Shown piece by piece: positions 18,021 through 44,079 of a stretch of 64,000 bases of DNA (position 1 is its first letter; the number at the start of each line of letters is the position of its first letter). The DNA comes from Pirellulales bacterium (GTDB taxonomy: Bacteria > Planctomycetota > Planctomycetia > Pirellulales > JAICIG01): the NCBI GenBank assembly GCA_035550375.1, contig DASZPH010000038.1, positions 90,667 to 154,666 on the forward strand, written 5' to 3'. The position numbers were made by a program, and so were the translations under genes. The notes beneath the pieces were generated by a model. It made no database searches and was not told the origin of the DNA. It saw nothing but the letters and a program-made list of their open reading frames with translations.

Positions 18021-19214
18021 TCACGCTTCAGCGGCTGCCGGCTCGGCCGAGGCGGGTTGCACGCGGACCGGCACAAGCACTTGAATCGGCTCCTGGATGC
18101 CGCGCACGGTCTGCACGTAATTCTCGAGGCGTTGCCGCAACGAAGAGGTAACTTCATTTCCTTGGGTGATCAGAATGTCGCCGTCGCAGGTAAGAACGTG
18201 CTGGTCGAGGACCATTTCTTCCTCCAACTCGCTAATCCGCACCGAGCGGGAAACGTAGCAGACCTCACAGTTGAACAACTTGGCCACCCCTTCAAGTAGC
18301 ACCGGATCGTACCAGCCTCGGCGTCGGTGTAGCTCGCCCAGCGCCTGCTCCTGCGTGTGGCCCGATGCCCGCAGAACGTCGAAATCGAGCGCGAGCTTCA
18401 ACACCCTGGCGCCGAGTGGAATGTCGTTGCCGCTGCGGTCGTCCTCGGGCGCGCCCGTCCCGTCGAAACGTTTTTCCTGATAGGCGATGATCTCGGCGAC
18501 TGCCGCCAGCCTCGGGATATTCCGGACCAGGTCCGCGCCGATCCGCGGGTGCGACTGGAAGAGGGCCATCTCGCGCAGGCCGAGCGATTGGCCGGCGCAG
18601 ATTTTCTCGAGCAGGGGCTCCGGCAGCGTAATGCACCCCACGTGGGAGAGCATGGCCCCGATTTCCAACGGCCAGGTGGGCTCGATCTTTTGTTGCGCCG
18701 CGATTTGCTGGACCAACTTGCGAATGCGGGCGGCGCGGCCGAACGCCTTCGGCTTGGCCAGCGCCAGCGTGTCCGCCAGCAGCCGCACACTGCCGTGGAG
18801 CGTCTTGGAGAGCAGCTCCTTTTCGGCGGTGACGAGCCGAAATTGCTCCAGGCCCGTCGTGAGCGTGGTCATCAGCGGCTCGGCGCCGCAAGGCTTGTTC
18901 AGAAAGCGAAAGATGCTCCCCTGGTTGATCGCGTCGATGGCCGTTTGCTGGTCGGCCTGCCCCGTGAGCATGACGCGGACGCTTAAGGGCGCGAGCTTCG
19001 CGACCTGCTGCAACATCTCGACGCCGTTCATGCCGGGCATCTGCATGTCGGCCACGACGACGCCGAAGGGACGTTCTCCGCCGCGGGCACGAACGAGCTC
19101 CAGACCTCGTTCCGGACCCTCGGCCGTTTCGAGTTGAAAACGGCCGCGCAGGGCTCGGGTGATGGCAGACAACAGGTTGGCATCGTCGTCGACAAACAGG
19201 ATCGTTTCGTCCAT
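18021..19214 (-). CDS. response regulator: REC + degenerate HD-GYP-like domain
   Basis: REC motifs ILFVDDD, VVADMQMPGMNG, LNKP. The HD-GYP-like core is conserved in layout (HPRIGADLV, FDGTG, IPLGARVLKLALDFDVL) but carries SHVGC in place of HDIGK, and YQEK...GTGAP in place of HHER...GxGYP. Confidence 0.85.
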   Translation of the reverse strand: MDETILFVDDDANLLSAITRALRGRFQLETAEGPERGLELVRARGGERPFGVVVADMQMPGMNGVEMLQQVAKLAPLSVRVMLTGQADQQTAIDAINQGSIFRFLNKPCGAEPLMTTLTTGLEQFRLVTAEKELLSKTLHGSVRLLADTLALAKPKAFGRAARIRKLVQQIAAQQKIEPTWPLEIGAMLSHVGCITLPEPLLEKICAGQSLGLREMALFQSHPRIGADLVRNIPRLAAVAEIIAYQEKRFDGTGAPEDDRSGNDIPLGARVLKLALDFDVLRASGHTQEQALGELHRRRGWYDPVLLEGVAKLFNCEVCYVSRSVRISELEEEMVLDQHVLTCDGDILITQGNEVTSSLRQRLENYVQTVRGIQEPIQVLVPVRVQPASAEPAAAEA

Positions 19215-19235
19215 GGCGGACCTTTCGTGCCTGAT

Positions 19236-20438
19236 CTAACTCGGTTCTTTATCTGAAATCTTCAACGCCTGCCGCCATGCGGTGAGCTTGTCGCGGCAGC
19301 CAACGGTCGCCAGATAGTCTTCGTCGACCTGGAGAAACGCCCTGCCGTCGTTTCCGGCACGTTCGTGTGTCCAGCAATTAGCCAGGTGGACGGTGGTTGC
19401 GGCGCAGAAGGACTGTCGTCCGCAACGCCGCGGGGTGTGATGAAAGGCCACCGCCTCGATCAGGACATCGGGAAAGCCCCATAGCCCCAAAAGATAAGCG
19501 CCGACCTCGGCGTGCGTGCACCCCAGGATGTCGGCTTCGGCGACATACCAAGGGGTCTGCTCAAGGCGAACTGTTTGGACCACTTTGGCATAGTGTTCCG
19601 CGAGATTCTGGGCGAGCACCAGCTTGCCAATGTCGTGTACGACGCCGGCGACGAAAGAATCGTTGACCAGCGTGGCGCCGCCCCCAGCCAATCGCGCCAG
19701 GGCTCGCGCCAGCGTGCCCACCGCCAGGCTGTGGTCGAAGAGATAATCGACCTCCGGACCGAGCGTTGCCCTACCAGATGGAGGGGAGAAGACGCTGACC
19801 GACAGCACGAGGGCCCGCAGCACTTCGGTCCCCAGCACCGAGGCGGCCTGTTGCGGCGTGCCCACGCGCTGTCGCAAGCCGAAATACGACGAGTTGACCA
19901 GTTGCATCACCTTGGCGGTCATCGCCATGTCGCGAGAAACAATCTCGCCGATGCGGGTCAGGGAGCAATCCGGCGATTGCAATTCGGCGACAAGCTGGGT
20001 GTAGAGAGTGGGAAGACTGGGCAGCGAGGTGATTTTGGCGATGAGTTGTTGAATGCTCGGTTCGGCCATCCATTGACGCAGCGCCAAAGCTCGCTCCACC
20101 GTGGCCTTGAGCTGGTTGGCATCGCATGGCTTGGAAAGGTATTGGTGGGTCGGGCCCACACACCGCAAGACGCTTTCACGATCTGCCTGGCCAGAGAGGA
20201 TGATCCGCACCATTCCCGGCCAGCGGCGCGAGACCTCGTCGAGCAACTGGGCGCCGTCCATGCCGGGCATCCGCATGTCGGAAACGATGACGTCGAACGG
20301 CCGCTCCGAGAGCAGTGCCAGCGCATCGCTCCCGCTGTTGGCGAAAGCCGTCTCCCACTCGTTGCGCCAAGCGCGGAGCATGCGGCGCAGGCCGTCGAGC
20401 ACTCCCGGTTCATCGTCGACAAAGAGGACATGTTTCAT
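19236..20438 (-). CDS. response regulator: REC + HDOD domain
   Basis: REC motifs VLFVDDEP, VIVSDMRMPGMDG, LSKP. HDOD motifs LPSLPTLYTQLVAEL...IGEIVSRDMAMTAKVMQLVNSSYFG and VHDIGKLVL. Confidence 0.85.
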   Translation of the reverse strand: MKHVLFVDDEPGVLDGLRRMLRAWRNEWETAFANSGSDALALLSERPFDVIVSDMRMPGMDGAQLLDEVSRRWPGMVRIILSGQADRESVLRCVGPTHQYLSKPCDANQLKATVERALALRQWMAEPSIQQLIAKITSLPSLPTLYTQLVAELQSPDCSLTRIGEIVSRDMAMTAKVMQLVNSSYFGLRQRVGTPQQAASVLGTEVLRALVLSVSVFSPPSGRATLGPEVDYLFDHSLAVGTLARALARLAGGGATLVNDSFVAGVVHDIGKLVLAQNLAEHYAKVVQTVRLEQTPWYVAEADILGCTHAEVGAYLLGLWGFPDVLIEAVAFHHTPRRCGRQSFCAATTVHLANCWTHERAGNDGRAFLQVDEDYLATVGCRDKLTAWRQALKISDKEPS

Positions 20439-20460
20439 GGATTCCTCCGACGCAATTGGG

Positions 20461-22452
20461 TCACGGCACTCGGTCGCCGGCGGTCACCGCCGGCGCGTCA
20501 ACTGCGCCCTCCTGGGGCGTTTCCAGGGGAAGCCGAACGATAAACGTCGTCCCTTGTCCGACTTCGGTTTCAAAACTGATGCTGCCGCCATGCTTCTCGA
20601 CAATCACCGAATAGGCCTGCGCCAGTCCCTGGCCCGTGCCGTGGCCTACCCCCTTGGTGGTGAAGAATGGCTCAAAGATCCGTGACTGGATTTCTTCGGG
20701 AATTCCGGTTCCGGTGTCCGAAATGCGCATCTCGACCCAATCACCCAGCCGTTTCGTGCGGACGCTGATCGTCCCCGGTTTCGCGCCTCCGCGCTCTTGC
20801 GCCGCGTTGATGGCGTGGGCGGCGTTGACAACCAGGCTGAGAATCACCTGGTTAAGATCGTTGGCATGAGATGGGACGAGCGGGAGTTGGCCATCCAGGT
20901 CGGTCTTCACCTCAGCGACGTGCTTCCACTCGTTGCGGGCCACGACAAGCGTGCTCTCGATCGAACGATTCAGGTCGGTCGGAGTCTTTTCGTTCGCTCC
21001 CGGCTGCGCGAACTCTTTCATAGCCTGCACGATCGTGGCCACGCGGTTGAGTCCTTCCAGAGATTGCTCGATGGCCTGCGGGATCTCGGCGGTCAAGAAC
21101 TCCAGATCGGCTAGTCGGCGGGCGTCGGCGGCGTGGTCGAGCAGTTCGTCGGTCAGCGCACGTGATGACGCGGCCAGCAGCACCCGGTCGTACTCCTGCA
21201 AGAGCTTTCCCAGTTCGGCGAAGCATTCCCTCAAGAACCTATTGTTGTCGCTGATGTATTGGATGGGCGTATTGATCTCATGCGCGATGCCAGCCGCCAA
21301 TTGGCCGATCGCTTCCAGCTTTTGAGCGTGGCGCAGTTGCGTTTCGAGTTGCCTCCGCTGGGTGACGTCTTCGATCAGTCCTACAAAGCCGGTTACTCGT
21401 TGCTCTTCACGCAACGGCGCCGCGGTCACGTTGGTCCACACGACGCCCCCATCCGCATGCAGAAAACGGTGGACGCTTCGGAAATCGCGGCATTCTCGGA
21501 CGGCCGCATACCATTCTCGCACGACCCGCTCGCGGTCGTCGGGATGGAGGGCCTGAATCCAACCATCGCCGCGCGCGAAATCGAGTTTCTGGCCCGTGAT
21601 CCCTTCGCAAGTCCTGTTGGTTTGCACGCACGAGCCGTTCTGATCGCTGGCGAACATCCCCAGGGGGAGCGAATCGTTCATGGCCCTCAGTTTCGCGGTG
21701 GCGTGCCGCAATTCGGCCGTGCGCGTCAGAACCTGTTCCTCCGTCCGACGATGGGCCTCTTCGATTCTCGCCTGCCGCACGCTGATCGCCCGCATCTCCC
21801 GCCGGCTCTGCCAGATGGAATAGCAGAGAAAGACGTCTTCAAACACGAGCCAGCCACCGTGTTCCAGCGGCCGCCAGATGCTCAGCGAGGATACGCCGAA
21901 TGCCGACTCGGGCCAGGCCAGTCCACGGATCAGGTGGTCGACGACGATCACGGTGGAAGCCGTGACGATCACCCACCAGTCGCGATAGAAGGCCAAGAAC
22001 GCCAGAGAGCCGAAGACGTGAAAGTGCGTTTCGATGCGGCCGCCGGAGATGTGAATGAACAGGGCCGACCAGGCCATCTGTGCCAAGGCCACAACGTGTC
22101 GCGTCAAAGCATCGCCGGGGCGCAGAACCGTCAGACAGACGGGCATGACCGAGATCAGGCAACCCAGGAAGAGCGACGCCCAGGCGTGGAGATGGACCTG
22201 GCTTTCGGCCCCCGCCCAGGTCAGTGGCGTGAGCCAGCACGCGGCGGCCATCCCCGCCACCCATTGCAACACCATCAGGATGGCGAAGGACCGATCGACT
22301 CCCCGGCGAAGCGATTGAAGTTGCTCGTGAAATAGGACCTCTTCTCGAGAAGAGAAGTCTAGGTCGGCACGATCTCGACTGGGTACGGCACGCACGGCCA
22401 TCTTACGAAAATTCCTTGTCAAGGGACTGACGGCTCTTGGAACAAAGGGCAT
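20461..22452 (-). CDS. membrane sensor histidine kinase (His-rich multi-TM module, PAS, HisKA, HATPase)
   Basis: 5-6 TM N-terminal module with [16 protein letters not shown], one PAS, H-box AAGIAHEINTPIQYI, N-box LVVNAAHAI, G-boxes DTGTGIP and GHGTGQGLA. The start is ambiguous: 22452 overlaps the upstream gene by 34 nt, and ATG 22401 is the alternative. Confidence 0.85.
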   Translation of the reverse strand: MPFVPRAVSPLTRNFRKMAVRAVPSRDRADLDFSSREEVLFHEQLQSLRRGVDRSFAILMVLQWVAGMAAACWLTPLTWAGAESQVHLHAWASLFLGCLISVMPVCLTVLRPGDALTRHVVALAQMAWSALFIHISGGRIETHFHVFGSLAFLAFYRDWWVIVTASTVIVVDHLIRGLAWPESAFGVSSLSIWRPLEHGGWLVFEDVFLCYSIWQSRREMRAISVRQARIEEAHRRTEEQVLTRTAELRHATAKLRAMNDSLPLGMFASDQNGSCVQTNRTCEGITGQKLDFARGDGWIQALHPDDRERVVREWYAAVRECRDFRSVHRFLHADGGVVWTNVTAAPLREEQRVTGFVGLIEDVTQRRQLETQLRHAQKLEAIGQLAAGIAHEINTPIQYISDNNRFLRECFAELGKLLQEYDRVLLAASSRALTDELLDHAADARRLADLEFLTAEIPQAIEQSLEGLNRVATIVQAMKEFAQPGANEKTPTDLNRSIESTLVVARNEWKHVAEVKTDLDGQLPLVPSHANDLNQVILSLVVNAAHAINAAQERGGAKPGTISVRTKRLGDWVEMRISDTGTGIPEEIQSRIFEPFFTTKGVGHGTGQGLAQAYSVIVEKHGGSISFETEVGQGTTFIVRLPLETPQEGAVDAPAVTAGDRVP

Positions 22453-23117
22453 CCGAACACGGGTGTGTTCTCCGGCGAAATCTGACCGGTTTTTAGCCAG
22501 GAGATGATCGCCGACTCACCGGGGTTGTCGCCGGAGTGCCCCCGAGCCGCGGTAAGGCCCCCTGAAAAAACGAGCCGGCCGGCACCGTCGTACAAGAAGG
22601 ACTGTCCCGAGGTTCTTGCCTCAAACCGGCGAGCAACGGCGCCGTCGACGTCGGCCATCGCCCGAACCCCCGGAATGTTTTCCGCCATTTGCCAAAGGTC
22701 CGTCTTCTCCCAGTCCGACGAAAAACCAGCCGGTCGGTAAAAGAAAACTTGGGTGTCGAGTTTTTTCTCGCGCCGGGAGACGATTTTCGCCAGTTCGCCG
22801 AGGGTCGCTCGGCTGCAGGGGCACTTGGGATGGAGAAACAGCAGCAGCCTGGCTTTTTCCGCCGGGCCCGTCTCTGGCCCGCTGGCGATCTGCTTCGGCG
22901 GCCGAGCCGCTTTGCCCGGGATCGAACTGTGGTAGGCGAGGACCAACACGCCGCTCAGAACGGCGGCGATCCAAGGCCCCACGAACCAGTGCGGCCCCAG
23001 GGACGAGCGCCGATCAGCCGGTGGTCTGCCGCTCGTATGCAAGCGCGCCGCGGTCGTCGTCGATAACTGGTACGGATCGGGGTTCAACGGCATGTCCATG
23101 CGATCGGTTCTCAGCAC
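22419..23117 (-). CDS. membrane-anchored thioredoxin-fold protein with atypical C-P-C motif
   Basis: One TM (WFVGPWIAAVLSGVLVLAY). Then a Trx-like beta-alpha start LLLFLHPKCPCSRATLGELAKIV and a later ...SFLYDGAGRLVFSGGL...RGHSGDNPG segment. Overlaps both flanking kinase genes. Confidence 0.55.
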   Translation of the reverse strand: MLRTDRMDMPLNPDPYQLSTTTAARLHTSGRPPADRRSSLGPHWFVGPWIAAVLSGVLVLAYHSSIPGKAARPPKQIASGPETGPAEKARLLLFLHPKCPCSRATLGELAKIVSRREKKLDTQVFFYRPAGFSSDWEKTDLWQMAENIPGVRAMADVDGAVARRFEARTSGQSFLYDGAGRLVFSGGLTAARGHSGDNPGESAIISWLKTGQISPENTPVFGCPLFQEPSVP

Positions 23118-25186
23118 AGGACTAGATCCTTGCTCGATGAAACTTGTTCGACTTCGGCGGCCGCGCTTAACGGCAGCCGAACGATAAACGTCGTTCCGCG
23201 TCCCGCCGCCGTTTCGAACGTGATCGTGCCACCGTGTTTCTCGACGACGACCGCGTGCGAGATGGCCAACCCCTGTCCCGTCCCCTTGCCGACGCCCTTG
23301 GTGCTGAAAAACGGATCGAAGACTTTTCCTTGCACTTGGGGCGGGATGCCCGTTCCGTTATCTGCCACGCGGATCTCGGCGAAATCTCCATCGAGCCGCG
23401 TGGTGACACGGATTTCGCCCTTCGTCAACTTGCCCGCTGCGACCACGTCGCCGATGGCATGTGCCGCGTTCACAACCAGGTTGAGCAGGACCTGGTTGAT
23501 CTCGCCGGGCAGGCAGGGAACCTGGGGAAGGTTCTCGTCAAAAATGGTGACGACGTTGGCAACGTATTTCCATTCGTTGCGGGCAACGGTCAACGTGCTC
23601 TGAACGGCGCGGTTGAGATCGACGTGTGTTTTATCCGGCGTGCCCGGGTGGGCAAATTCCTTCATCGCGCGAACGATCCCGGCCACCCGATCGATCCCTT
23701 CCAGCGACTGCCCAATCGCTTTGGGAATTTCTTCGAGCAAGTAGTCCAGATCGGCGCGCCTGGCGACCGCTACCAATGCGCCGCAATGACTCTCTGCCGC
23801 GGGATCGGCCATGAGCCGCTTGACCTCGACCAACAGCGATTCCAGATCTTGGAAGGTGTCCTGCAAGAAGCGCGTGTTGTCGCCGATGTACTGCGTGGGG
23901 GTATTGATCTCGTGGGCGACGCCAGCTGCAAGCTGGCCGATCGATTCGAGCTTCTGAGCCTGCAGGAGTTGGGTCTGCAAACGATTACGCTCTGTGACGT
24001 CCTCGTGTGCGACCACGACGCAGAAGCGTCCTTCGTCGGCAAAGCGAGTGGCGCTGACGACGAACCAGCGGGTGTTCTGCGGCACCGCGAAAGGATACTG
24101 CAAATGAAACTCGGTGCAGCGACCGGCCACCAACTGCCGCACGCCTTCGGCGACCTTCTCTCCCTCGCGACCACAGTCGGCAGTGCCAACCGCACAGGCC
24201 TCCAGATAATCGGCACCCACGACGGCCGATTGACGAAGTTCCGGCTGCTCGTCGGCGAACGCCTGCCAGGCATCGTTGACCGCGACAATGACGCCGCGGT
24301 GGTCGAGAATGGCAATTCTGGCAGAGAGTGAGTTCAGGGCCGCTTGCAGAAACCGCTTGGACTGCCGCAAATGGCGCTCGCTCTCTTTCGCCTCCCGCAA
24401 GTCGCTGAGGGTGGCCAGCGTGTGCTGTTCTCCATCGAGCGTCGTCTGCCGCGCGAGGACGACGTTCACGGGAATGGCGCTTCCGTCACGGTGCTTCAGC
24501 CACATGTCCCGGCCAAGCCGCGAGCCCATACGTTCGCAGTTTGCCGACAGGTACGCATCCTCGGGGTAGGCGTCGATGCCCGGCGCCAGATCGCGCGCCA
24601 CAACTCCGCGGAGGCCGCCCGACGCAAAGCCGAGCAGCTTCTCGGCCGCGGCGTCGGCGGACTCGATCGTTCCCGCGGCACCCACAACGAGTTGTCCGTC
24701 GGCCTGCGGCGGCCGAAGTTGAGCCTGGGCCTGCCGCTCCAAGCAGAGACGTTGTTCCCGGCGGCGGCGAAGTGACTCAGCCAGCGAGCGTTCGATCGTG
24801 TCCGTCTGCAGATGCTCGACGTCGATGGTCACTTCCCCGGCAAGAGGCGAAATACCGCTGTTGCGCACGAGGACAACGCAAGGTGGACACTGCACGGCAT
24901 CATGGTTCTCCTCGATTAGCCGGCAGGCAAAACCGGCGTCCTCGGCGGCGTCGATGAGCCACGCCTCGTCGAGGTGCGACCGTAAGCAGGACCTGGTCGC
25001 CTCGGTCGTCGCTAGTCGGCACACCTCAAAGCGCAACCGCTGAGAGGCTTCCAGGGCCGTTACCACGCGCCGATAACGGTCGTCGCAATCGCCGATATAG
25101 AGGACCGTGAATCGATACTTGGCGTTCCCGTCGGTCACTGATGGTTGTCGCATGATGCGCTTGCCATGGGTGACTTCACTCCCCAT
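23111..25186 (-). CDS. cytoplasmic sensor histidine kinase (pseudo-receiver-like N-terminus, 2 PAS, HisKA, HATPase)
   Basis: No TM segments. Two PAS-like regions. H-box AAGVAHEINTPTQYI, N-box LVVNAAHAI, G-boxes DNGTGIP and GKGTGQGLAISH. The kinase core is a close paralogue of that in 20461..22452. Confidence 0.85.
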   Translation of the reverse strand: MGSEVTHGKRIMRQPSVTDGNAKYRFTVLYIGDCDDRYRRVVTALEASQRLRFEVCRLATTEATRSCLRSHLDEAWLIDAAEDAGFACRLIEENHDAVQCPPCVVLVRNSGISPLAGEVTIDVEHLQTDTIERSLAESLRRRREQRLCLERQAQAQLRPPQADGQLVVGAAGTIESADAAAEKLLGFASGGLRGVVARDLAPGIDAYPEDAYLSANCERMGSRLGRDMWLKHRDGSAIPVNVVLARQTTLDGEQHTLATLSDLREAKESERHLRQSKRFLQAALNSLSARIAILDHRGVIVAVNDAWQAFADEQPELRQSAVVGADYLEACAVGTADCGREGEKVAEGVRQLVAGRCTEFHLQYPFAVPQNTRWFVVSATRFADEGRFCVVVAHEDVTERNRLQTQLLQAQKLESIGQLAAGVAHEINTPTQYIGDNTRFLQDTFQDLESLLVEVKRLMADPAAESHCGALVAVARRADLDYLLEEIPKAIGQSLEGIDRVAGIVRAMKEFAHPGTPDKTHVDLNRAVQSTLTVARNEWKYVANVVTIFDENLPQVPCLPGEINQVLLNLVVNAAHAIGDVVAAGKLTKGEIRVTTRLDGDFAEIRVADNGTGIPPQVQGKVFDPFFSTKGVGKGTGQGLAISHAVVVEKHGGTITFETAAGRGTTFIVRLPLSAAAEVEQVSSSKDLVLC

Positions 25187-35859: not shown

Positions 35860-36310
35860 AGCATGCACGATCCTGATGGTTGATGACGATCACGAGATTG
35901 CCCACGCCGCCTGCATGCGCCTGCGTGCCGCCGGCTACAAGACCCTGCAGGCGGCCGACGGCGAATCGGGCGTCGCCGCTGCGGTGGCCAGCCGCCCCGA
36001 CCTGATCCTCTTGGACGTCCGCATGCCGGGCAAGGACGGGCTGGCCGCACTGTCGGACCTGAAACATCGGTCCGACACTTGCGGCATTCCCGTGGTCATG
36101 CTTTCGGCCAGCGTCGTCGACCAGGAAGCGGGCCTGAACGCAGGCGCAAGGTTTTTCATTCGCAAACCGTACAACGGTGCGACGCTGATGCAGGCGGTTC
36201 GCACCGCCATCGGAGCACCAGCCGCGCGCGACGCCAACCGCGCCGGCAACACGCTGGGCACCGATTCAAACGGCAATAAGTCCCACGCCCATTTTGAGGA
36301 GCGCCAATGA
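35852..36310 (+). CDS. single-domain response regulator
   Basis: ILMVDDDHE, ILLDVRMPGKDG, MLSAS, IRKP. Overlaps the upstream gene by 8 nt and the downstream gene by 4 nt. Confidence 0.85.
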   Translation: MPEACTILMVDDDHEIAHAACMRLRAAGYKTLQAADGESGVAAAVASRPDLILLDVRMPGKDGLAALSDLKHRSDTCGIPVVMLSASVVDQEAGLNAGARFFIRKPYNGATLMQAVRTAIGAPAARDANRAGNTLGTDSNGNKSHAHFEERQ

Positions 36311-36756
36311 TCCCGACATCACAACATCAAGACGACATGATCGAGAGCGGTACGCCCACGATCCTGTGCATCGACGACGACCTCGACGTGCTCGGTGCGG
36401 TCGAATTGCGGATGCGCGAGTTCGACGTGAACCTGGTACGGGCCTTTGACGGCATGGAGGGCTTCGGCGAAGCCGTAACCTGCAAGCCCGACGTAATTGT
36501 CATGGATCTGGATATGCCGTACGGCGACGGCATGACCATGCTCGAATGTTTTCGACGCGATCCCGACACGGAGAAGACGCCGGTGATCATTCTCACCGGG
36601 CTGAACGATCCGACATTGAAGCAGAGGATGATCGATATGGGCGCCAACCAGTTTCTGCGGAAGCCGGTCCGATTCGACGACCTCAAGCAGGAACTGGAGC
36701 AATTCATCTCGCTCCGGCCTCGCGAACACGCCGTCCCGACCGCCGCCGACAAGTAA
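36307..36756 (+). CDS. single-domain response regulator
   Basis: ILCIDDDLD, IVMDLDMPYGDG, ILTGLND, LRKP. ATGA overlap with the upstream RR gene. Confidence 0.85.
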   Translation: MIPTSQHQDDMIESGTPTILCIDDDLDVLGAVELRMREFDVNLVRAFDGMEGFGEAVTCKPDVIVMDLDMPYGDGMTMLECFRRDPDTEKTPVIILTGLNDPTLKQRMIDMGANQFLRKPVRFDDLKQELEQFISLRPREHAVPTAADK

Positions 36757-36786: not shown

Positions 36787-37692
36787 ATGACCAAGAACAA
36801 ACTCGTTCTGATCGCGGACGATGACGAAAACGTGGTCGACGTGGTGGCGCGGCGTTGCGAAGCGCTGGGCCTGCGAGTCGAGCGGGCATACGACGGCAAG
36901 TCGGCGATAGAAAAAGCCATGACGTACGAAGCCGATCTGATCGTGCTGGACGTGAACATGCCGGGCGGATCAGGACTGACCGTGTGCGAGATGCTCTCGC
37001 GCGACGCGCACCTGAAGTCGAGTCCCGTAATCATGCTCACCGGACGCAAGGACGCGCAGACGGTCCGCTCGTGCAACGACCTGCTTGCGTACTATGTGCC
37101 GAAGGGGGCGGATATGTGGGCTCGCCTGGAGCCAGTGATGGAAGAGTTGCTCGATCTGGGCCGGGGCCGGACGGCCCACCCATCGCAGGACGTGCTGTGT
37201 GTCGGCGACGTCATAGTCGCCGCGGCAACTGGAAGAAACTGCGAGGATCAAACGGGTGGCCCGCTGCCGGATGGCGAATTGGCTCCCGCATGGGTCCTGT
37301 GCGTCGACGACGATCGCGAATTTGTCGAGTCGCTGAAATGGCGTCTTGGGCAACACGGGGTCGAGGTCGCCCAGGCGTTCGCCGGCATGGCCGGCTATCG
37401 GGCAGCCTTCACCACGCGCGCGGGGGCGATCCTCCTCGATCAGGACATGCCCGACGGCAATGGTGAATACATCCTGCGACGGCTCAAGGAAAACATCGTC
37501 ACGCGAGATATACCGGTGCTCGTCGTCACCGGATCGCGCGACCGGATGTTGGAGCGCAAAATGTACAATCTGGGGGCGGCCGGCTATTTTACCAAGCCGG
37601 TCGTCTGGGATGAGTTGTGGTCCAAGCTGCGGTGCTACTTGGACGTTAGATCAGACAAGTCGGCCCCCGTCTTGCAGGCCGCCGAGGAGTAG
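36787..37692 (+). CDS. tandem-receiver protein (REC-REC, no output domain)
   Basis: REC1: LIADDDEN, IVLDVNMPGGSG, MLTGRKD. REC2: LCVDDDRE, ILLDQDMPDGNG, VVTGSRD, FTKP. ATG 36787 (MTKNKLV) is preferred over the longest-ORF start at 36757. Confidence 0.85.
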   Translation: MTKNKLVLIADDDENVVDVVARRCEALGLRVERAYDGKSAIEKAMTYEADLIVLDVNMPGGSGLTVCEMLSRDAHLKSSPVIMLTGRKDAQTVRSCNDLLAYYVPKGADMWARLEPVMEELLDLGRGRTAHPSQDVLCVGDVIVAAATGRNCEDQTGGPLPDGELAPAWVLCVDDDREFVESLKWRLGQHGVEVAQAFAGMAGYRAAFTTRAGAILLDQDMPDGNGEYILRRLKENIVTRDIPVLVVTGSRDRMLERKMYNLGAAGYFTKPVVWDELWSKLRCYLDVRSDKSAPVLQAAEE

Positions 37693-37853
37693 GCGGATTC
37701 TTCCCCTCATCCTTCGGGCTCCTTGGGCTAGGATGAGTTGGGCGACGGTTTCGCTCACCGGTCCCTTTCGCCTGCGACACCGGGAAAACGTCTTGCTCGG
37801 CGTTGCTTTGGCAACTCGACGAGCACTGGAAAGGCGTCGGCCGACACTCGCTC

Positions 37854-39482
37854 TCACGCGCCGGCGAGCGCTGGTTGATCGAGCGCGCCTTTAGCACAGT
37901 CTAGCGCTTGTCGCACGCTCGCCAGCAGTACGTCGGGGTCGAAGGGCTTTTCGATGAGCTGCACGCCCGCTTCAACCAGAAATCGAACCTCTCCGGTTTC
38001 CGGGGCGTAGCCGCTGCAGAACAGAACCGGCAGCGACTTGTTGCTTCGCTTGATATGCTCGTAGACGTCACGCCCGTTCAAATTCGGCATGACCGCGTCG
38101 AGCAGGGCCAGATCGATGGCGTCTTGATTCGCGTCAAACAGTCGTACGGCTTCTGCGCCATCCGAGGCGGCGATTACCGAGTAGCCGGCCTGGGACAGCA
38201 TTCGCGTCGCCAGTGCTCGCACCATCGGCTCGTCCTCTGCCAGCAAAATGGTTTCGCCCTCGTCATGCCTGGTTACGCCCTCGCCAGCTTCCTCGCCGCC
38301 GCCGAGTCTTTCACCCGCTTCGGCCGGCGCGCCTAGGGGCAGGTAGATCTTGAAGTTGGTGCCCACCCTCGGCTCGGAAAAGACGTGAATCAGGCCGCCG
38401 TGCTGCTGCACGATACCGTATACGGACGCCAAGGCCCGCCCCCGGCCGTCCCTCGCCTCGTTCGACGCGAAGAACGGGTCGAACAGCCGCCCTCGTTCCT
38501 CCAGAGGGACTCCGCATCCGGTGTCGGCTACGGACAAGAGCAGGTAGGTTCCCGGCTGGGCGAGCGGATGAAACTGGCAGAAGTGTTCGCCCAGCTCGAC
38601 GCGCTCGGTTCGCAGCATGAGCGTGCCTCCATCGGGCATGGAGTCCCGAGCGTTCAGGCAGAGATCCAGCAACGCCTGGTGCAGCAATTCCGGGTCCGCC
38701 GAAAACGAACCGACATCGGCCGCCAGGTCGGTTTCGAGTTCGATGCGATGGTCGAGCAGGGGCTTCAGCACTTCAATCAGCCGGGCCGCAAACTTGCCCG
38801 AATAGATCGCCTGACGATGGATCGCGAGCCGCGGGCTGAAACCCTGCAATTGTCGCGTGAGGGCGGCCGCACGATCCGACGCGTTCATCACCTGTTCCAG
38901 ATCCTGATAGCGCTGATCGTCGACCGGCAGCCCCTCCATGGCATAGCGGGTGTAGCCCCGGATCACCTGCAACAGGTTGTTGAAAACGTGAGCGATTCCG
39001 CTGGCGAGCGATCCGGCCGTCTCCAGCCGCTGAGACTCCGCAGGCCGCTCGACCCCGCGCGGCGCTGGCGAGGCAGCCGAATACCGTCGCCGCTGCGTGG
39101 CTTCTTGCAGCGCCGCATCGAGCGCCCCGTCGGAGAGCTCACCCCAGGACAAAACGGCAAGGGCGCCCCGTGCGAGCGCGGTCTCCCTCGTCGCGTCGTC
39201 TGATTCGGCGACCACCAACACGATGGAGATCGAAGGATCTGCTTGCCGCAAGGCGGCCAGCGTCGCCCGATTGTTGCCGTTTCCCAACTGGGCGTCCAGG
39301 ACAACGACGTCGCACGATTGGCCGGACAGATACCCCAGAACGGCCGTTAGGCTGCCGGCCCGCACGAAATCGCAGCCGCTTTGCGTCGACGCCGCGCTCA
39401 AGAGAAGCGCCTGCCGAGCGTCGTCGGCGGCGGCGAAGACGATGCGCAAAGGCACGTCGGCGAAAGGTCGTTCCTGCTGCAT
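37854..39482 (-). CDS. hybrid histidine kinase (degenerate REC-like N-terminus, HisKA, HATPase, REC)
   Basis: H-box ASGIAHVFNNLLQVIRGY and G-box DTGCGVP. C-terminal REC ([26 protein letters not shown]). The N-terminal 120 aa are receiver-shaped but lack the conserved Lys. Confidence 0.85.
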   Translation of the reverse strand: MQQERPFADVPLRIVFAAADDARQALLLSAASTQSGCDFVRAGSLTAVLGYLSGQSCDVVVLDAQLGNGNNRATLAALRQADPSISIVLVVAESDDATRETALARGALAVLSWGELSDGALDAALQEATQRRRYSAASPAPRGVERPAESQRLETAGSLASGIAHVFNNLLQVIRGYTRYAMEGLPVDDQRYQDLEQVMNASDRAAALTRQLQGFSPRLAIHRQAIYSGKFAARLIEVLKPLLDHRIELETDLAADVGSFSADPELLHQALLDLCLNARDSMPDGGTLMLRTERVELGEHFCQFHPLAQPGTYLLLSVADTGCGVPLEERGRLFDPFFASNEARDGRGRALASVYGIVQQHGGLIHVFSEPRVGTNFKIYLPLGAPAEAGERLGGGEEAGEGVTRHDEGETILLAEDEPMVRALATRMLSQAGYSVIAASDGAEAVRLFDANQDAIDLALLDAVMPNLNGRDVYEHIKRSNKSLPVLFCSGYAPETGEVRFLVEAGVQLIEKPFDPDVLLASVRQALDCAKGALDQPALAGA

Positions 39483-39703
39483 TCTGACGCCCCCAGTTCG
39501 TCCCCTTTGACGGTCGCGTTAAGGAAGTATAGTCGCGCATGAGCTGTCGCTGCCTTGCGCCCTCGCGCTGGTCTCTGCATGAGTGTGAACAGCGGCCGCC
39601 GCCTGCGAGAAGGTAGAAATGAGCAACAGCTTCGCGCGCCGGACGGCGGCGGTGCGATGGCGGTCAGGGCGAACCGAGGCGACGTTGAGGGGCCAACCAC
39701 CAG

Positions 39704-40360
39704 ATGAAGATTCTGATCGTCGCGGATGCGGCCCCGATTCTGTTCACGCTGGAGCAGTTCCTCACCGAGCAGGGCTACGCCACCGTTGCGTCGAAGTCGG
39801 CCGATGATGCCCTGGAGAAGCTGGCCGGCGATCCTTCGATCCGGCTCGTCTTATGCGACTTGCTCCTGCGCAACACGAACGGTATTCAGCTCTGCAATGC
39901 CGCCAACCAGATTACGCACCTTGGCGACGACGGAGTGCTGCCGCCTCCTAAATTCATCTTTATGGCCGCTCCCGCCATTGGCGGCGGGGAGCACGACGAG
40001 CGGCTGCGCACCGAAGGCCGATTGCTTTCCGACGGAGAAGTGATTCAAAAGCCGATCGACCGGATTGAGTTGCTCGGCAGGATCCGCGATCTGGCCCAAC
40101 CTTCGCGGCCGAGGCGTCCAGCCCCTCGACGCGAAATGGAATCTGCGGACGAGGCGCTCCACGACGAGGCGTCGCCGGCCCTCTTGGGACAGATCACCGA
40201 CGATCACAAAAGCATGAACGAGCGTCTCAGCGCGCTTGAGTCCAGCCATCGTCAGATTCGCGGGCGCCTGCAGCAGATTGAAAAACGCCTGGGCAGGCTC
40301 GACGATCGCAGGCGGCGGGCCCGATCGCAGGCGCCGCAGGTTGAGAACAAAGCACCCTGA
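39704..40360 (+). CDS. receiver-like protein with C-terminal coiled coil
   Basis: The REC scaffold has the phospho-Asp position present (LVLCDLLL). The acidic pocket is VADAA instead of DD(D/E), and MAAP stands where T/S is expected. The C-terminus has heptad-like sequence LSALESSHRQIRGRLQQIEKRLGRL. Confidence 0.7.
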   Translation: MKILIVADAAPILFTLEQFLTEQGYATVASKSADDALEKLAGDPSIRLVLCDLLLRNTNGIQLCNAANQITHLGDDGVLPPPKFIFMAAPAIGGGEHDERLRTEGRLLSDGEVIQKPIDRIELLGRIRDLAQPSRPRRPAPRREMESADEALHDEASPALLGQITDDHKSMNERLSALESSHRQIRGRLQQIEKRLGRLDDRRRRARSQAPQVENKAP

Positions 40361-40425
40361 TCCGCGAAGGACGACCGCCCCAAGGCTCTCCATCGAACGG
40401 TTATTGCCGCCTCTCCCGCCCCACC

Positions 40426-41079
40426 TTACCGCCCGATCACTTGCAGGACGGGGGCCGACCGAACCCTGCCTGGCCGGCCCGCTGCCGCCACCGCCATCGC
40501 CAGCGATGCCATGGAGTCGACCTCCAACCGCTCGTAAACCGCGGACCGGCGAAACTGCACGGTGCGCACGCTGACTCCCAGACGCTTGGCAATCGTTTTG
40601 CTTGGAATGTTGTCCAGCATCATTTCCATCACGCACCGTTCGTCGTCGCTCAGTGCGTCCAGCTTCGCCAGAATGTCGTTCGTTTGCGATGCTTCGGCCC
40701 TCACCAACTCGTCATGTGCCAAGGCGTTCTTCAACGTTTCCCACAGCTCGTGGCCCCGACACGGCTTTTCGAGGAAGGCAAACACGCCCTTCTTTAGCGC
40801 GGCGACCGCCAGCGGGATGTCGCCGTAACCCGTGACCATTACGACCGGCAGCAGAATTCGCCTAGCGTTCAGCTCGTCGACGACCTCCATTCCATTCATC
40901 CCCGGCATGCGCATGTCGAGGACAACGCAACCAGGCATTTCTCCTGTACATTTTGCCAGGAATGCTTCACCGCGATGAAACGGCAAAACGGGAACGCGTA
41001 ACGTCTCGGCAATAGCCGCGATCGCTTCGCGGCTGCCTTGGTCGTCGTCGACGACGAACACGGAAGGAAGGCTCGCCAT
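40426..41079 (-). CDS. FixJ/LuxR-family response regulator
   Basis: ATG 41079 (MASLPSVFVVDDDQG). VVLDMRMPGMNG, LEKP. HTH: LSDDERCVMEMMLDNIPSKTIAKRLGVSVRTVQFRRSAVYERL. The longest ORF (to 41340) adds an implausible 87-aa leader. Confidence 0.85.
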   Translation of the reverse strand: MASLPSVFVVDDDQGSREAIAAIAETLRVPVLPFHRGEAFLAKCTGEMPGCVVLDMRMPGMNGMEVVDELNARRILLPVVMVTGYGDIPLAVAALKKGVFAFLEKPCRGHELWETLKNALAHDELVRAEASQTNDILAKLDALSDDERCVMEMMLDNIPSKTIAKRLGVSVRTVQFRRSAVYERLEVDSMASLAMAVAAAGRPGRVRSAPVLQVIGR

Positions 41080-41518
41080 GGCCCTGTACTCCGCCTTACA
41101 TGGTCGTGTGCGTGCCCCGCACCCAAAACGGGCAAGCAACCGTGGTCGATCGCCTGCCTTGCAGCGTTCGATGGATTCGCAGTTTCGCGTGCCGCAATCA
41201 AACGCGAAGGGCGTTTCGCTTACGTTTATCGGGGGGAGACGAGTTCCCACTTTACGCTCGGAGAGAGGGGAAATGCCCTTGGGCGTTTCCGCGCGATAAG
41301 TCACGCGCCTCCTTGCAAGTTCTGATCCGAAACCGCACACTCCTTTCGCTCCGAGTCTTGCCTGGAAAACGCAACGTCACATCCTTCGCACTCGATGGGG
41401 AACTCGCCATTGCGCCCGCGCGCATTCGGCTGCCCTGACACGTAAGGAGGCCCTTTCACCCGGTGTGTCATAATGAAAATGATTACGCGAACCTCTTCCT
41501 TCCAAGGAACGACGCGGG

Positions 41519-42139
41519 ATGACGGTACCAACTGTTTTTGTGGTCGACGGCGAGCACGATGCACGACAATCGACGTACGAGTTACTGCGGGCGAATGGCC
41601 ACGCGGTGACCCTTTTCTCGACACCGGGTGCTTTTGATCAGGCTTACAGCCCTGGCGAGGCGGGGTGCCTGGTGCTCGACATCTCGCTTCCGAACCTTAG
41701 CGGTCTGGCACTACTGCAGAGTCTGTCGCGGCGCAGCATCGGACTGCCCGTAATTGCCGTCAGCGGCGAGGCCACAACGCGCATGGCCGTCGATGCCATC
41801 AAACAGGGCGCGATGGAATTCATCGAGAAGCCCATCTGCCCGGTCACCCTGTTGGCACAGGTTCGCTATGCCCTCGACCGTGACGCGGAGAACCGCGAAC
41901 GAGAGGCTCGCATCGCGCTCACCCGGCAGCGATTGGCGACTCTGACGATGCGCGAACGCGAGGTTTTCGACTTACTCGTTGCCGCCTGGTCGCCCAAGCA
42001 AATCGCCGCACGACTCGGCATCAGCCCAAAAACCAGCGACGTCCACCGTGCGCGCGTCCTGGCTAAGATGCACGTCGAGAGCGTCGTGAAGTTGGCACGC
42101 GTCGCGCACCGTGTCGGTCTGCTGCAGGAAGCGGAGTAG
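41519..42139 (+). CDS. FixJ/LuxR-family response regulator
   Basis: VFVVDGEHD, LVLDISLPNLSG, IEKP. HTH: LTMREREVFDLLVAAWSPKQIAARLGISPKTSDVHRARVLAKM. Confidence 0.85.
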   Translation: MTVPTVFVVDGEHDARQSTYELLRANGHAVTLFSTPGAFDQAYSPGEAGCLVLDISLPNLSGLALLQSLSRRSIGLPVIAVSGEATTRMAVDAIKQGAMEFIEKPICPVTLLAQVRYALDRDAENREREARIALTRQRLATLTMREREVFDLLVAAWSPKQIAARLGISPKTSDVHRARVLAKMHVESVVKLARVAHRVGLLQEAE

Positions 42140-42183
42140 CAGGTATCTCGCCGGCCGTTTCCTCACCCGGGCACACCGGCGTC

Positions 42184-44079
42184 TTAGACGGCATGGGGTG
42201 CATTGAGGACCTCGCGCACGATGCGCAACAAGACTTCGGGATCATAAGGCTTTGCGACTAGAGTCACCCCCTGGCCAATCAGCGATTTGATCTGGGCCCG
42301 CTCGGGGTGGTAGCCACTGCAGAAAATCACGGGCAGTTCGGGCTTGGCCAGTTTGATGCGATGGTACACCTCCGGGCCGCTCAGTTTCGGCATGACCGCG
42401 TCGAGTAGCGCCAGGGAGATACTCTCCGCCTGATCCTTGAACGTTTCTACCGCCTCATTGCCATCACATGCAATTACCACCCTGTATCCCGCGCCGGTGA
42501 GAACCCGAACCGCCACGTCCCGCAGCATCGGCTCGTCTTCAGCGACCAAAATCGTCTCTGTGCCTCCCAAGGCGGGCGCCGATTCCTCTTGCTCCGTTTC
42601 CGCAGCAAGACCCTTGCCGACGGGCAGGTAGATTTTAATGGTTGTGCCTAGTCCGACCTGGCTGTCGACGACGATCGAGCCTTCATGTTGTTGGACGACG
42701 CCGTAGACCATCGCCAGCCCCAGACCCGTTCCGCGACCGACCTCCTTGGTCGTGAAGAAGGGCTCGAAGATTTTTGCCTGGACGTCGGGAGACATGCCAA
42801 GCCCGCTGTCAACAACCGAGAAGAGGACGTACGAACCCGGCTTGGCCACGCAATGACGCTCGCACTCCTCGGCGGCAAGCTCCACTCGCTGGGTCGCGAG
42901 GGTCAGCCGTCCTCCTTTGGGCATGGCATCGCGTGCGTTGATGCACAGGTTCAGCAGCATCTGATGAAGCAAATCCGGATCGGCATAAACCGAGTTGGCC
43001 CTCTTGTCCAAGCGGAGATTAAGGTCGATTTGTTCTCCGATCAGCGGGCGCAGCAGCCTCACCAGGTCGGTCACGACCTCTTGGGGGTCGCAGATGGTCC
43101 GCTTAAGCACCTGGCGACGACTGAAGCCCAGGAGCTGGCGGGTCAGCTTAATGGCCCGGTCGGTCGCCTTGATCACCTGGGCCAGATCCTGGTAGCGCTG
43201 GTGGGAGGGCGATAGTCCGTCCATGCCGAACTTGGTGTACCCGCGTATGGCTTGCAGCAGGTTGTTGAACTCGTGGGCGATGCCCCCCGCCAGTTGCCCG
43301 ACGGACTCCAGCTTTTGTGCCTGGCGGAATTGCTCGTCCCGCCGTCTGAGGTCGGCCTCAACCTTGTTGCGCTCGGCGATTTCGTCGCGGAGCCGCTGAT
43401 TCTGGAGCAGCACCTTCTTCTCGGCACGGCGATACGCGGTCTGGGCGCGCACCTGGCGGACGGCAAGCTGCTGCATAACGAAAACGCTCCGCCGAATGAA
43501 TAACAAGAGGAAGAAATCTTCGCAGCAAGCCCAGGCCGTGTGTTCTAACGCCCGCCACGCGGCCGGGGCGGACGTTCCGAATACAGACTGAGGGTACAAA
43601 GTCCCCCGGATAATGTGGTCGAGCGCCACGACAAGCGTTCCCGCGATCAATACGGACCAGCGGCGATAGGAGGCGAGCAATGCCAGCGAGGCGAACACGT
43701 GGAAGTGTGTTTCGATCCGTCCGCCCGTGAGGTGGATGAGCAATGCCGACCAGAGCATCTGGGCAATCGCGTTGATGTGGCGCGTCAGCCCCGAACCGGC
43801 GTGAACCAGCGACATGTACGCGGGGAACAGCGTCAGCGCGCCGCCCAGGAAGATCGCGGCGAAAACGTGCAGATGTATGGAGCTCTCCGTGCCTTCCCAG
43901 GCTCGGGGAGAATAGCGGAAGGCCAGGACGATCGCCAGCAGCCATTGGACGACCATAACCTTTGCCACGATCCAATCGGTGCGGCGAGCGGTCGCCTGCA
44001 ACTGGTGATCGACGAGGCCGTCGGCCTGCCGGCGCCTCGCAGATCGTTCGTTGTTCGTCGCTTTCGACAGCGAGACCAT
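42184..44079 (-). CDS. membrane hybrid histidine kinase (His-rich multi-TM module, HisKA, HATPase, REC)
   Basis: The N-terminal TM module is paralogous to that of 20461..22452 ([16 protein letters not shown]). H-box [19 protein letters not shown]-boxes DSGLGMS and [14 protein letters not shown]-terminal REC ([26 protein letters not shown]). Confidence 0.85.

Follow-up and report, generated by a model that had tools for sequence, protein, structure and literature searches.

A stretch of about 26 kb in the genome of a Pirellulales bacterium (a planctomycete), positions 18021-44079 of a 64,000-nucleotide window that was analysed as a whole, encodes 9 sensor kinases along with 10 receiver proteins and a kinase co-sensor. 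Does this array work as one multi-input network or dedicated phosphorelay, as a preliminary description had proposed, or as several smaller systems that share a locus? On balance, and with modest confidence, we read it as a vertically inherited, selectively maintained set of four or more semi-independent two-component modules, and not as one obligate phosphorelay. This reading is built on observed domain content, residue conservation, synteny, selection, paralogy and the linkage of g04 to a transmembrane (TM) domain; kinase-substrate assignments, signal identities and outputs are inferred module by module below.

Composition and borders of the array

Pfam HATPase_c was detected in nine ORFs, starting at 20461, 23111, 25798, 28374, 30752, 32892/33060, 34285, 37854 and 42184, all of which except g05 also matched HisKA. 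Response_reg was found in stand-alone proteins at 18021, 19236, 27932, 31927, 35852, 36307, 36757/36787 (two RECs), 39704 (partial, 32 bits), 40426 and 41519. These searches reproduced the earlier count of nine histidine kinases and ten stand-alone receiver proteins, with 19 of the 20 genes being two-component genes. The receiver (REC) domains, estimated before at about 17-18, numbered 18, with 11 in stand-alone proteins and 7 in hybrid kinases (two each in g06 and g16, one each in g11, g12 and g20). The outputs were also as described, namely three REC-GerE proteins (g10, g18, g19), one REC-HDOD (g02) and one REC-HD_5 (g01), and so was the alternating orientation, with g01-g10 on the minus strand, g11-g15 on the plus strand, and g16 (-), g17 (+), g18 (-), g19 (+) and g20 (-) following. 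A residue check showed that the phospho-Asp was kept by 18 of 18 RECs and the His, N and G1 boxes by 9 of 9 kinases. Two receivers are degenerate, the N-terminal one of g16 and that of g17.

The coding fraction of the array was 91%. No two-component gene was present among the 30 flanking ORFs scanned, so 19 such genes in 20 consecutive ones is beyond chance. The right edge is marked by the strongest terminator-like site, a hairpin at 44311..44345 (-) between the YTV gene and g20, with a 15 bp stem and a T-rich tail; the total of such sites was not above that of shuffles, and hence only this one is reported. Junctions of -55 to +30 nt within g05-g01, within g11-g15, at g08/g07 and at g10/g09 are operon-like, and module 2 also has wider gaps at g06/g07 (91 nt) and g08/g09 (197 nt). 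The closest paralogs adjoin each other (g01/g02, g03/g05, g11/g12, g13/g14/g15, g16/g20 and g10/g18/g19).

Complex TCS loci, in which transmitter and receiver domains alternate, are a recognised rare class (PMC3018481). In the TCS-locus census of 2010, foci with more than two genes made up only 2.4%, and at least 8 TCS domains were found in 17 of 29,962 (PMC3018481). The present array differs from these loci in scale: its 19 two-component genes encode about 27 TCS domains, and one focus alone has 5 genes and 8 domains.

The sensor cassette and module 1

Module 1 consists of g05-g04-g03-g02-g01. The membrane histidine kinase g03 (20461..22401, minus strand) has a His-rich 6-TM input domain followed by PAS and the kinase core (Pfam PAS, HATPase_c), and its H-box is AHEINTP. 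The database gene call P0001 places its start at Met18. AF2 modelled the TM domain as six TM helices with a pLDDT of 86.5. The neighbouring g04 (22419..23117, minus strand) was characterised by AF2, Foldseek, alignments and linkage. Its model has a thioredoxin-like fold (pLDDT 86) with Foldseek matches to 2ywi, 3u5r, 2cvb and TlpA/Etrx/ScoI, and Pfam gave no match even at E<=10. In alignments A1 and A2, HPxCPCxR, TSG, RGHxG and a C-terminal GC were invariant, and the DN after RGHxG was nearly so. A positive-inside analysis predicted N-in/C-out topology, and the modelled protein is membrane-anchored and probably periplasmic.

A gene of the g04 type stood upstream of a g03/g20-type TM domain in 77 of 80 and 37 of 39 loci. 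The preliminary description had set the thioredoxin-fold gene apart from the signalling genes; the fold was borne out, but g04 is no bystander, being a signalling component and the near-obligate upstream partner of the His-rich 6-TM input domain. The second such domain belongs to the hybrid kinase g20 (42184..44079, minus strand; His-rich 6-TM, HisKA-HATPase and REC by Pfam), which is 79% identical to its ortholog in relative A. The TM domains of g20 and g03 are 46% identical, and g20 has no adjoining g04, the whole window holding only one.

The TM domain had at least 586 matches in GTDB species genomes, and the cassette of g04 and TM domain occurs in many phyla. Like MASE, MHYT and similar domains, the TM domain sits at the N-terminus, is polytopic and is joined to kinases, MCPs or GGDEF-EAL; unlike them, it has a near-obligate separate partner gene and no curated model (no match in Pfam at E<=10 or in NCBIfam at E<=0.1). 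A profile search of the PDB gave no match either, and the best Foldseek match to a PDB structure had E=0.24. For the cassette as a whole, sequence matches were absent from Pfam, NCBIfam and PDB.

RegB/PrrB is a six-helix membrane kinase with intramembrane redox sensing, co-transcribed with SenC/PrrC, a membrane-anchored periplasmic thioredoxin-fold protein of the Sco type (PMC9147068). With a 6-TM kinase, a thioredoxin-fold gene, a 17 nt gap between them and ScoI among the Foldseek matches of g04, the g04-g03 pair shares this system's architecture, and the likeness is an architectural one. Unlike Sco/SenC, g04 has CPC instead of CxxxC...H and no Pfam SCO1-SenC match. The TM3-TM4 loop of g03 and g20, (S/T)GGRIETHFH, likewise differs from GGxxNPF, the quinone-binding motif of RegB. 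The conserved Cys and His residues and the fold suggest that the signal read by the g03 TM domain and g04 is probably redox or metal.

The remaining kinase of module 1, g05 (23111..25186, minus strand), is cytoplasmic, with a pseudo-receiver-like N-terminus, PAS and a kinase core. It is a paralog of g03 (58% in the kinase core) and 77% identical to its ortholog in locus L006. The regulator g02 (19236..20438, minus strand) combines REC and HDOD (Pfam Response_reg 5e-22, HDOD 5e-53) and is 84-85% identical to its orthologs in loci L004 and L006. The last gene, g01 (18021..19214, minus strand; 84% identity in L004), combines REC with a degenerate HD-GYP domain (Pfam Response_reg 6e-17, HD_5 8e-37). 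An active RpfG-family phosphodiesterase was considered for g01 and rejected: intact HD and HHExxDGxGYP motifs, as defined in bioRxiv 10.1101/2021.11.05.467447, are absent, and the translation reads LSHVGC and AYQEKRFDGTGAP, with HD changed to HV, HHE to YQE and GYP to GAP. Its N-terminal REC is predicted to be phosphorylatable, with a complete DD...D...T...K set as in the RpfG family. The nearest NCBIfam family, NF053512, reached only 225 of the 400 bits that its cutoff requires.

The degenerate HD-GYP protein HnoD (HD to SE, HHE to QLE) does not hydrolyse c-di-GMP and inhibits its partner (bioRxiv 10.1101/2021.11.05.467447). As in that system, a kinase adjoins a REC-HD-GYP regulator with degenerate catalytic motifs; unlike it, the array has no H-NOX, REC-EAL partner or GGDEF, and its second regulator is REC-HDOD. 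We propose that g03 would read an envelope signal through its TM domain together with periplasmic g04, beside the cytoplasmic PAS kinase g05 with its nearly identical DHp helix. Both kinases would most likely phosphorylate g02 and g01, whose output may be protein-protein interaction rather than c-di-GMP hydrolysis.

Modules 2 to 4

Module 2 (g06-g10) was assigned from Pfam domains and lies on the minus strand. The hybrid kinase g06 (25798..27840, -) has the order REC-PAS-HisKA-HATPase-REC, keeps D/T/K in both RECs and is 75% identical to its ortholog in L006, where g07 abuts it. The CheY-like single-domain receiver g07 (27932..28384, -; Response_reg 3e-21) overlaps by 11 nt, at its start, the stop of g08 (28374..30554, -), a membrane kinase whose polytopic N-terminus is unannotated and is followed by PAS and a kinase core; by synteny, g08 is present in relative A and absent from relative B. 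The PAS kinase g09 (30752..31981, -) retains a 38-aa remnant of an N-terminal REC, which is complete in the 526-aa ortholog of L006 (tblastn against the window). The FixJ/NarL-type regulator g10 (31927..32688, -; REC-GerE) overlaps the g09 start by 55 nt, an overlap kept in relative A. The adjacency of a PAS kinase and a REC-GerE regulator is FixL/FixJ-like, and g09 would be paired with g10 and act on transcription, while g08 may signal to g07, with g06 as an additional hybrid kinase.

Module 3 (g11-g15, plus strand) begins with two receiver-kinases. The g11 protein (33060..34259, +; REC-HisKA-HATPase by Pfam) has no other sensor domain, intact REC residues and an ortholog with 82% identity. 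The g12 protein (34285..35859, +; 90% identity in relative A) also has, at its C-terminus, a conserved domain of about 130 aa that matched no known family in Pfam. The single-domain receivers g13 (35852..36310, +) and g14 (36307..36756, +) follow, overlapping g12 by 8 nt and g13 by 4 nt, respectively, and the dual receiver g15 (36787..37692, +) shows two Pfam Response_reg stretches whose residues were checked. The RedCDEF "four-component" operon of Myxococcus xanthus encodes two kinase-type proteins, a dual receiver and a single-domain receiver, lacks both Hpt and output domains, and uses its receivers to carry phosphate between the kinases (PMC2755868). Module 3 resembles it in gene content, with two kinases and three receiver proteins (two single, one dual) on one strand, gaps of -8 to +30 nt and no Hpt. 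It differs in that g11 and g12 each begin with a receiver of their own and have intact H, N, G1 and G2 boxes, and in that a kinase-like, probably non-autophosphorylating member (g16) sits in a separate transcription unit. Module 3, with two receiver-input kinases beside four bare receiver domains, may be an Hpt-less kinase-on-kinase circuit of the RedCDEF kind, its receivers serving as sinks or connectors.

Module 4 spans g16-g20. The g20 paralog g16 (37854..39482, -; Pfam) has a pseudo-receiver, a degenerate kinase and a REC. Its H+1 residue is Val and its G2 box GRGRAL; the ortholog in relative A also has Val at H+1, and its G2 box is instead GQGPGL. The receiver g17 (39704..40360, +) is atypical, with an insertion, a T-to-A change and a coiled-coil-like C-terminal tail (Pfam partial REC, 32 bits), and is 83% identical in relative A. 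Both FixJ/NarL-type REC-GerE regulators (Pfam), g18 (40426..41082, -) and g19 (41519..42139, +), are absent in relative A. This module would combine the TM-domain hybrid kinase g20 with its degenerate, sensor-less paralog g16, likely a phosphatase or phospho-acceptor rather than an autokinase, together with g17 and two dispensable regulators.

Conservation, wiring and origin

A dedicated phosphorelay in the strict sense did not hold up. No Hpt or Spo0B-like domain was found in the 20 proteins: PF01627 had no match at E<=0.01, and only weak PF10090 matches lay over the HATPase regions of g09 and g20. The gaps leave no room for one, as six-frame translation of the 611-nt gap gave no coding-length ORF and every other gap is <=436 nt. 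Other phosphorelay elements are present, with intact D/S-T/K in the C-terminal RECs of g06, g16 and g20 and terminal output-domain regulators in g10, g18 and g19 (REC-GerE). Since the array lacks Hpt, it is not a classical phosphorelay, although an Hpt may be encoded in another part of the genome.

The looser proposal, that the 20 genes together make up a single integrated multi-input decision network running from several sensors through receiver-kinases and bare receivers to the three FixJ-type regulators and the HDOD and HD-GYP proteins, stood in part, and we regard it as a possibility of rather low probability. The receiver is the sole input domain of g11, g12 and g16, an arrangement that implies kinases acting on kinases, and g11 and g12 keep all phospho-acceptor residues. 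There are also five bare RECs (g07, g13, g14 and two in g15) besides the atypical g17. DHp helix-1 is shared within two kinase pairs (g03/g05, 28/40 identical; g16/g20, 25/40), and related hybrid kinases can cross-phosphorylate, as in GacS/RetS/LadS-type multikinase networks (PMC8175716); here, too, several hybrid kinases with a shared ancestry may draw on the same receivers. From the receiver-only kinases, the shared helices and the bare receivers, some wiring inside the array is implied. Against a single network stand the missing Hpt, the dissimilar DHp helices of seven kinase lineages (every other pair <=18/40) and inconstant gene content: among the close relatives A and B, whole genes are present or missing (g08, g18+g19 and an extra REC), and a single domain, the REC of g09, also varies between relatives. 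Relatives at a greater distance have only 2-5-gene modules in unrelated contexts, such as g04-g03-REC-HDOD-REC alone in L001 (62% identity), g04-TM-HK-REC with REC-HD_5 and REC in L009, and g16-like kinases in 2-5-gene clusters. Because whole genes come and go and modules occur alone, a modular array fits better than one obligate network.

The same indels, the different contexts of homologous modules and the lack of a recognisable common output could instead speak for a passive hotspot, where unrelated cognate pairs and orphans piled up at a permissive locus and adjacency means nothing functionally. We consider this unlikely, given that the closest paralogs adjoin, that three kinases can sense nothing but another kinase's phosphoryl group, and that genes overlap tightly. 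The preliminary description had taken a lack of synteny in every relative as a sign of random accretion, yet two relatives with 73-90% protein identity retain the gene order and both borders; the order has persisted over about 0.5-0.9 synonymous substitutions per site. The dN/dS values of the array genes ranged from 0.08 to 0.32 (the maximum in g16), similar to flanking genes, and by this measure all array genes are under purifying selection. A horizontally acquired genomic island is highly improbable: a tRNA-Gln gene does lie 4 kb rightward, but conserved genes separate it from the array, GC is flat at 0.60-0.64 as in the flanks, no integrase or transposase occurs in the array or the 30 flanking ORFs scanned, and the array and both flanks are common to relatives.

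We thus return to the set of semi-independent modules, which seems to have expanded as genes duplicated locally and diverged and as single signalling genes were gained or lost. That the gene order has survived about 20% protein divergence could also reflect selection for co-regulating one network. Moreover, g20 lacks its own g04, and the phosphodonor of g11, g12 and g16 may sit in another module, which points to more cross-wiring than "semi-independent" implies. The locus is an unusually large, yet modular TCS array, and its most novel element is a widespread two-gene membrane sensor that has so far been unannotated.

Composition of the array and its signalling residues

The gene list of the preliminary description agreed nearly to the coordinate with an ORF listing and Pfam scans of the array (18021-44079), whose genes are numbered g01-g20 from left to right. 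Pfam recognized nine kinases, starting at 20461 (g03), 23111 (g05), 25798 (g06), 28374 (g08), 30752 (g09), 33060 (g11), 34285 (g12), 37854 (g16) and 42184 (g20). The database gene call for g03 begins at Met18. The ten stand-alone receiver proteins were also present, namely a REC plus HD_5 protein (g01), a REC-HDOD protein (g02), single receivers (g07, g13, and g14), REC-GerE proteins (g10, g18, and g19), a protein with two RECs (g15) and one with a partial REC (g17). The earlier estimate of about 17-18 REC domains was close, as 18 were counted, 7 of them within hybrid kinases. Two-component genes therefore make up 19 of 20 consecutive genes, which cannot be chance. The coding fraction of the array was 91%, and its genes lie in seven orientation blocks. 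There was no two-component gene among the 30 flanking ORFs scanned, which encode an SbcCD-like pair, a YTV-repeat protein, Rex, a dipeptidase, an ECF sigma factor and metabolic enzymes. The GC content was level across the array and its flanks, and a tRNA was the only Rfam match in the window.

Several features of the flanks were recorded. The SbcCD-like pair, a Metallophos protein and an SMC-like ATPase, forms the left border (12983-17901). The YTV-repeat protein (44401-46878, reverse strand) contains 21 Pfam YTV stretches (E=1e-172), and such repeats are typical of planctomycetes. The 815-aa ORF antisense to it (44533-46980, forward strand) probably results from the repeats and the high GC content. 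The mechanical ORF of the M19 dipeptidase (48231-49655) crosses a tRNA-Gln gene (48295-48367); since its Pfam match starts at residue 105, the real start must be downstream of the tRNA. A possible sigma/anti-sigma/receptor unit at 1061-3595 starts with an ECF-type sigma factor (1061-1657), after which come an ORF of 185 aa that Pfam did not match and a protein with a weak STN-domain match.

The receivers were aligned to CheY for a check of their key residues. The phospho-acceptor Asp was kept in all 18 RECs, and 15 additionally kept the acid pocket, Thr/Ser and Lys. In g19 the second acid-pocket Asp is replaced by Gly, while the N-terminal REC of g16 (AD...D...V, without Lys) and the REC of g17 (an insertion, and Thr to Ala) are degenerate. 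The N-terminus of g05 is a pseudo-receiver-like stretch. The His, N and G1 boxes were kept in all nine kinases, of which g16 (37854-39482) alone was aberrant, with Val instead of Glu/Asp after the phospho-His and a degenerate G2 box (GRGRAL). Its ortholog in relative A, which is represented by loci from JGI metagenomes, keeps the Val and has GQGPGL as its G2 box. As a paralog of g20 with a pseudo-receiver in place of the transmembrane (TM) sensor, g16 is a candidate pseudokinase or phosphatase. The HD-GYP motifs of g01 are degenerate (HV, YQE, and GAP); HnoD, likewise a degenerate HD-GYP protein, lacks activity and acts by inhibiting a partner protein (bioRxiv 10.1101/2021.11.05.467447). The receiver is the sole input domain of g11, g12, and g16, so these kinases must either be constitutive or obey another kinase. 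An Hpt domain was absent from all 20 proteins, and no intergenic gap could encode one.

Two further regions were without a family assignment. The N-terminal 270 aa of g08 (about 29700-30554) form a polytopic membrane region that matched nothing in Pfam at E<=10. This region adds another unannotated membrane input domain to the one in g03 and g20. The C-terminal 130 aa of g12 (35460-35859), following the kinase core, are conserved (about 88% identical in relative A) and unassigned by Pfam. A degenerate GGDEF domain (RGGPHRW) was considered for this region and rejected, as it had no Pfam support and relative A reads RVGPQRW.

Conservation and probable duplication within the array

The source organism is a member of the Pirellulales, in line with the YTV repeats and with the closest relatives, which are Pirellulales MAGs. 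When GTDB genomes were scanned with g03 alone, no close relative was detected. In relative A (L004/L005 and L007/L008), the orthologs were 73-92% identical. Its gene order is beta-helix, SMC, Metallophos, an inserted Uma2-family gene (L004 4529-5179) between the SbcCD-like pair and g01, then g01, g02, g03 ... g07, after which g08 to g17 run consecutively, followed by g20 and the YTV gene; g18 and g19 are absent. Relative B (L006, MAG GCA_035948895.1) has g02-g07 and g09-g11 and lacks g08. It carries an extra inverted single REC between g05 and g06 (L006 6264-6785), which was 53% identical to the C-terminal REC of g06; no remnant of it was found in the 611-nt gap of the window at 25187-25797. 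The N-terminal REC of g09 is complete in relative B (about 150 aa; L006 1701-3281), whereas only its first 38 residues are left in the window (31871-31981) and in relative A, which indicates a domain-level deletion within a kinase gene. Around g18-g19, neither repeats nor a composition shift bearing on insertion versus deletion were found.

Both borders of the array were kept in the relatives, and the dN/dS of every array gene was 0.08-0.32, like that of the flanking genes, with the maximum in g16 (0.32). These results indicate that the block was inherited and maintained, yet tolerates the gain and loss of genes and domains. In more distant genomes the homologs occur as small modules. A locus with a g03 homolog of 62% identity (L001) has g04, g03, a REC-HDOD gene and a REC amid sugar-metabolism genes, and another (L009) has g04, a TM-HK-REC gene, a REC-HD_5 gene and a REC. 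Kinases like g16 were found elsewhere in clusters of two to five two-component genes. These small modules lie in unrelated contexts.

Within the array, the best match of each domain was a neighboring gene. The identities were 58% for the HK cores of g03/g05, 50% for those of g16/g20, and 55, 40, and 38% for the RECs of g16/g20, g11/g12, and g01/g02, respectively; those among g10/g18/g19 were 32-40% and those among g13/g14/g15a/g15b were 30-34%. Such a pattern suggests that genes were duplicated locally, long ago. In two-component systems, partner choice is governed chiefly by the DHp helix-1. This helix was identical at 28 of 40 positions in g03/g05 and at 25 of 40 in g16/g20, and every other kinase pair shared at most 18 of 40, so the members of these two pairs may share targets, while the other kinases look insulated from each other. 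Gene spacing gave the units g05-g04-g03-g02-g01, g10-g09, g08-g07, g06, g11-g15, the singles g16, g17, g18, and g19, and g20, which is preceded by a strong terminator-like hairpin. That hairpin excepted, promoter and terminator scans gave nothing above shuffles.

A cassette of g04 and a six-TM input domain

The more novel element of the array is the combination of g04, a thioredoxin-like membrane-anchored protein (22419-23117), with the TM domain common to g03 (21718-22401) and g20 (43432-44079). No match to g04 was found in Pfam or NCBIfam, and all its database homologs are labeled hypothetical. Its N-terminal TM helix has a strong positive-inside bias (net +3.3 before the helix vs. 0 after), so the soluble domain should be periplasmic. 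The AF2 model (pLDDT 86) has a thioredoxin fold, whose nearest structures are uncharacterized Trx-like proteins and the TlpA, Etrx, CcmG, and ScoI families. In the alignment, H96, P97, C99, C101, R103, T169-S170-G171, R192-G193-H194, G196, and C223 were invariant and D197 and N198 nearly so, giving the motifs HPxCPCxR and RGHxGDN and a C-terminal Cys. The secondary structure of the model places the CPC motif where helix 1 begins, which is the canonical position of a Trx active site.

The TM domain is N-terminal, about 200 residues long and predicted by AF2 to have six TM helices (pLDDT 86.5). H70, H72, H102, H117, E124, H126, H128, D155-H156, and E180-H181 were invariant or nearly so, and all except H102 would be at the periplasmic face if both termini are cytoplasmic. 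The domain had no match in Pfam, NCBIfam, PDB sequences (profile search) or PDB folds (Foldseek). It had 4000 representatives at E<=1e-3 and 1509 at E<=1e-30 in a library clustered at 50% identity, and at least 586 loci in GTDB species genomes. The cassette loci (L013-L137) cover many bacterial phyla, and cultured Corallococcus, Stieleria, Lacipirellula, and Symmachiella have homologs. The TM domain was always the input end of a signaling protein, being fused to kinases, hybrid kinases with REC and Hpt, GGDEF-EAL proteins, and MCPs, the last in Corallococcus coralloides and a gammaproteobacterial MAG.

Of 80 loci examined via the TM domain, 77 had a g04 homolog immediately upstream and on the same strand, and of 39 loci found via g04, 37 had a TM gene immediately downstream. 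The two form a near-obligate two-gene cassette. The TM domain of g20 has no adjacent g04, in the window as in relative A (L007 2196-4115), a situation met in 3 of 80 loci elsewhere; the sole g04 of the window adjoins g03, 19 kb from g20. An apparent in-frame g04+TM+GGDEF-EAL fusion (P0486, 765 aa, metagenomic) would put g04 in the cytoplasm, against the strong positive-inside signal. It may be a read-through artefact and was not used as evidence.

RegB/SenC, in which a six-TM redox kinase is co-transcribed with a periplasmic Sco-type protein (PMC9147068), parallels g04 and the g03-type kinase in architecture, but its defining motifs are unlike those of g04 and the TM domain. As far as searches of Pfam (2025), NCBIfam (2026), the PDB and the literature show, the cassette is undescribed, although it may have been reported under another name. 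We put the chances slightly short of even that g04 and the TM domain shared by g03 and g20 act together as an envelope sensor of two proteins that has not been described before. This widespread sensor would probably respond to redox state or a metal and feed kinases, chemoreceptors and c-di-GMP enzymes, and in the array one g04 may serve two kinases.

Organization of the array

Among the same-strand TCS foci in a census of 1406 replicons, 2.4% comprised more than two genes, and eight or more TCS domains were seen in only 17 of 29,962 (PMC3018481). When foci were delimited by the 200-nt rule of that census, the array contained the five-gene foci g10-g06 (7 TCS domains) and g11-g15 (8 TCS domains); over its 26 kb, the array as a whole comprises about 27 TCS domains. 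It stands at the extreme of an already known class of loci and does not define a class of its own.

Of the readings considered, an array that is maintained but modular agrees best with the evidence, and we consider this organization somewhat probable. In module 1 (g01-g05), the envelope sensor g04 with g03 and the cytoplasmic PAS kinase g05 would act on the HDOD and degenerate HD-GYP regulators. Module 2 (g06-g10) would contain, besides a FixLJ-like pair, two more kinases. Module 3 (g11-g15) would be a circuit of receiver-kinases and bare receivers, Hpt-less like RedCDEF (PMC2755868). In module 4 (g16-g20), the hybrid kinase g20 would be accompanied by g16 as its degenerate paralog, by an atypical receiver and by two FixJ-type regulators that are dispensable.

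The preliminary description had read the whole array as a dedicated multi-input phosphorelay or decision network. A single network is favored by the receiver-only kinases, the conserved gene order, the shared DHp helices and the lone g04 of the window, and cross-talk between g16 and g20 is plausible given the 'phylogenetic promiscuity' of related hybrid kinases (PMC8175716). Evidence against it comes from the missing Hpt, seven dissimilar DHp lineages, indels among close relatives and free-standing modules in other genomes, and we regard a single network as rather unlikely. A purely passive pile-up of genes appears improbable. Horizontal acquisition is highly improbable, as composition and synteny contradict an HGT island.

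Complex two-component loci are those in which the one-kinase-one-regulator rule fails, and few have been dissected. The array described here lies in the extreme tail of size, is conserved enough for function, and varies between close relatives in a way that marks the module borders, which makes it a natural test case for the assembly and insulation of multi-kinase circuits. If one g04 serves two kinases, two of its modules would be physically coupled. Furthermore, the cassette represents a large sensor family that is not yet annotated, is clearly marked by its pair of genes and has conserved Cys/His chemistry; its ligand, once identified, would annotate thousands of signaling proteins.
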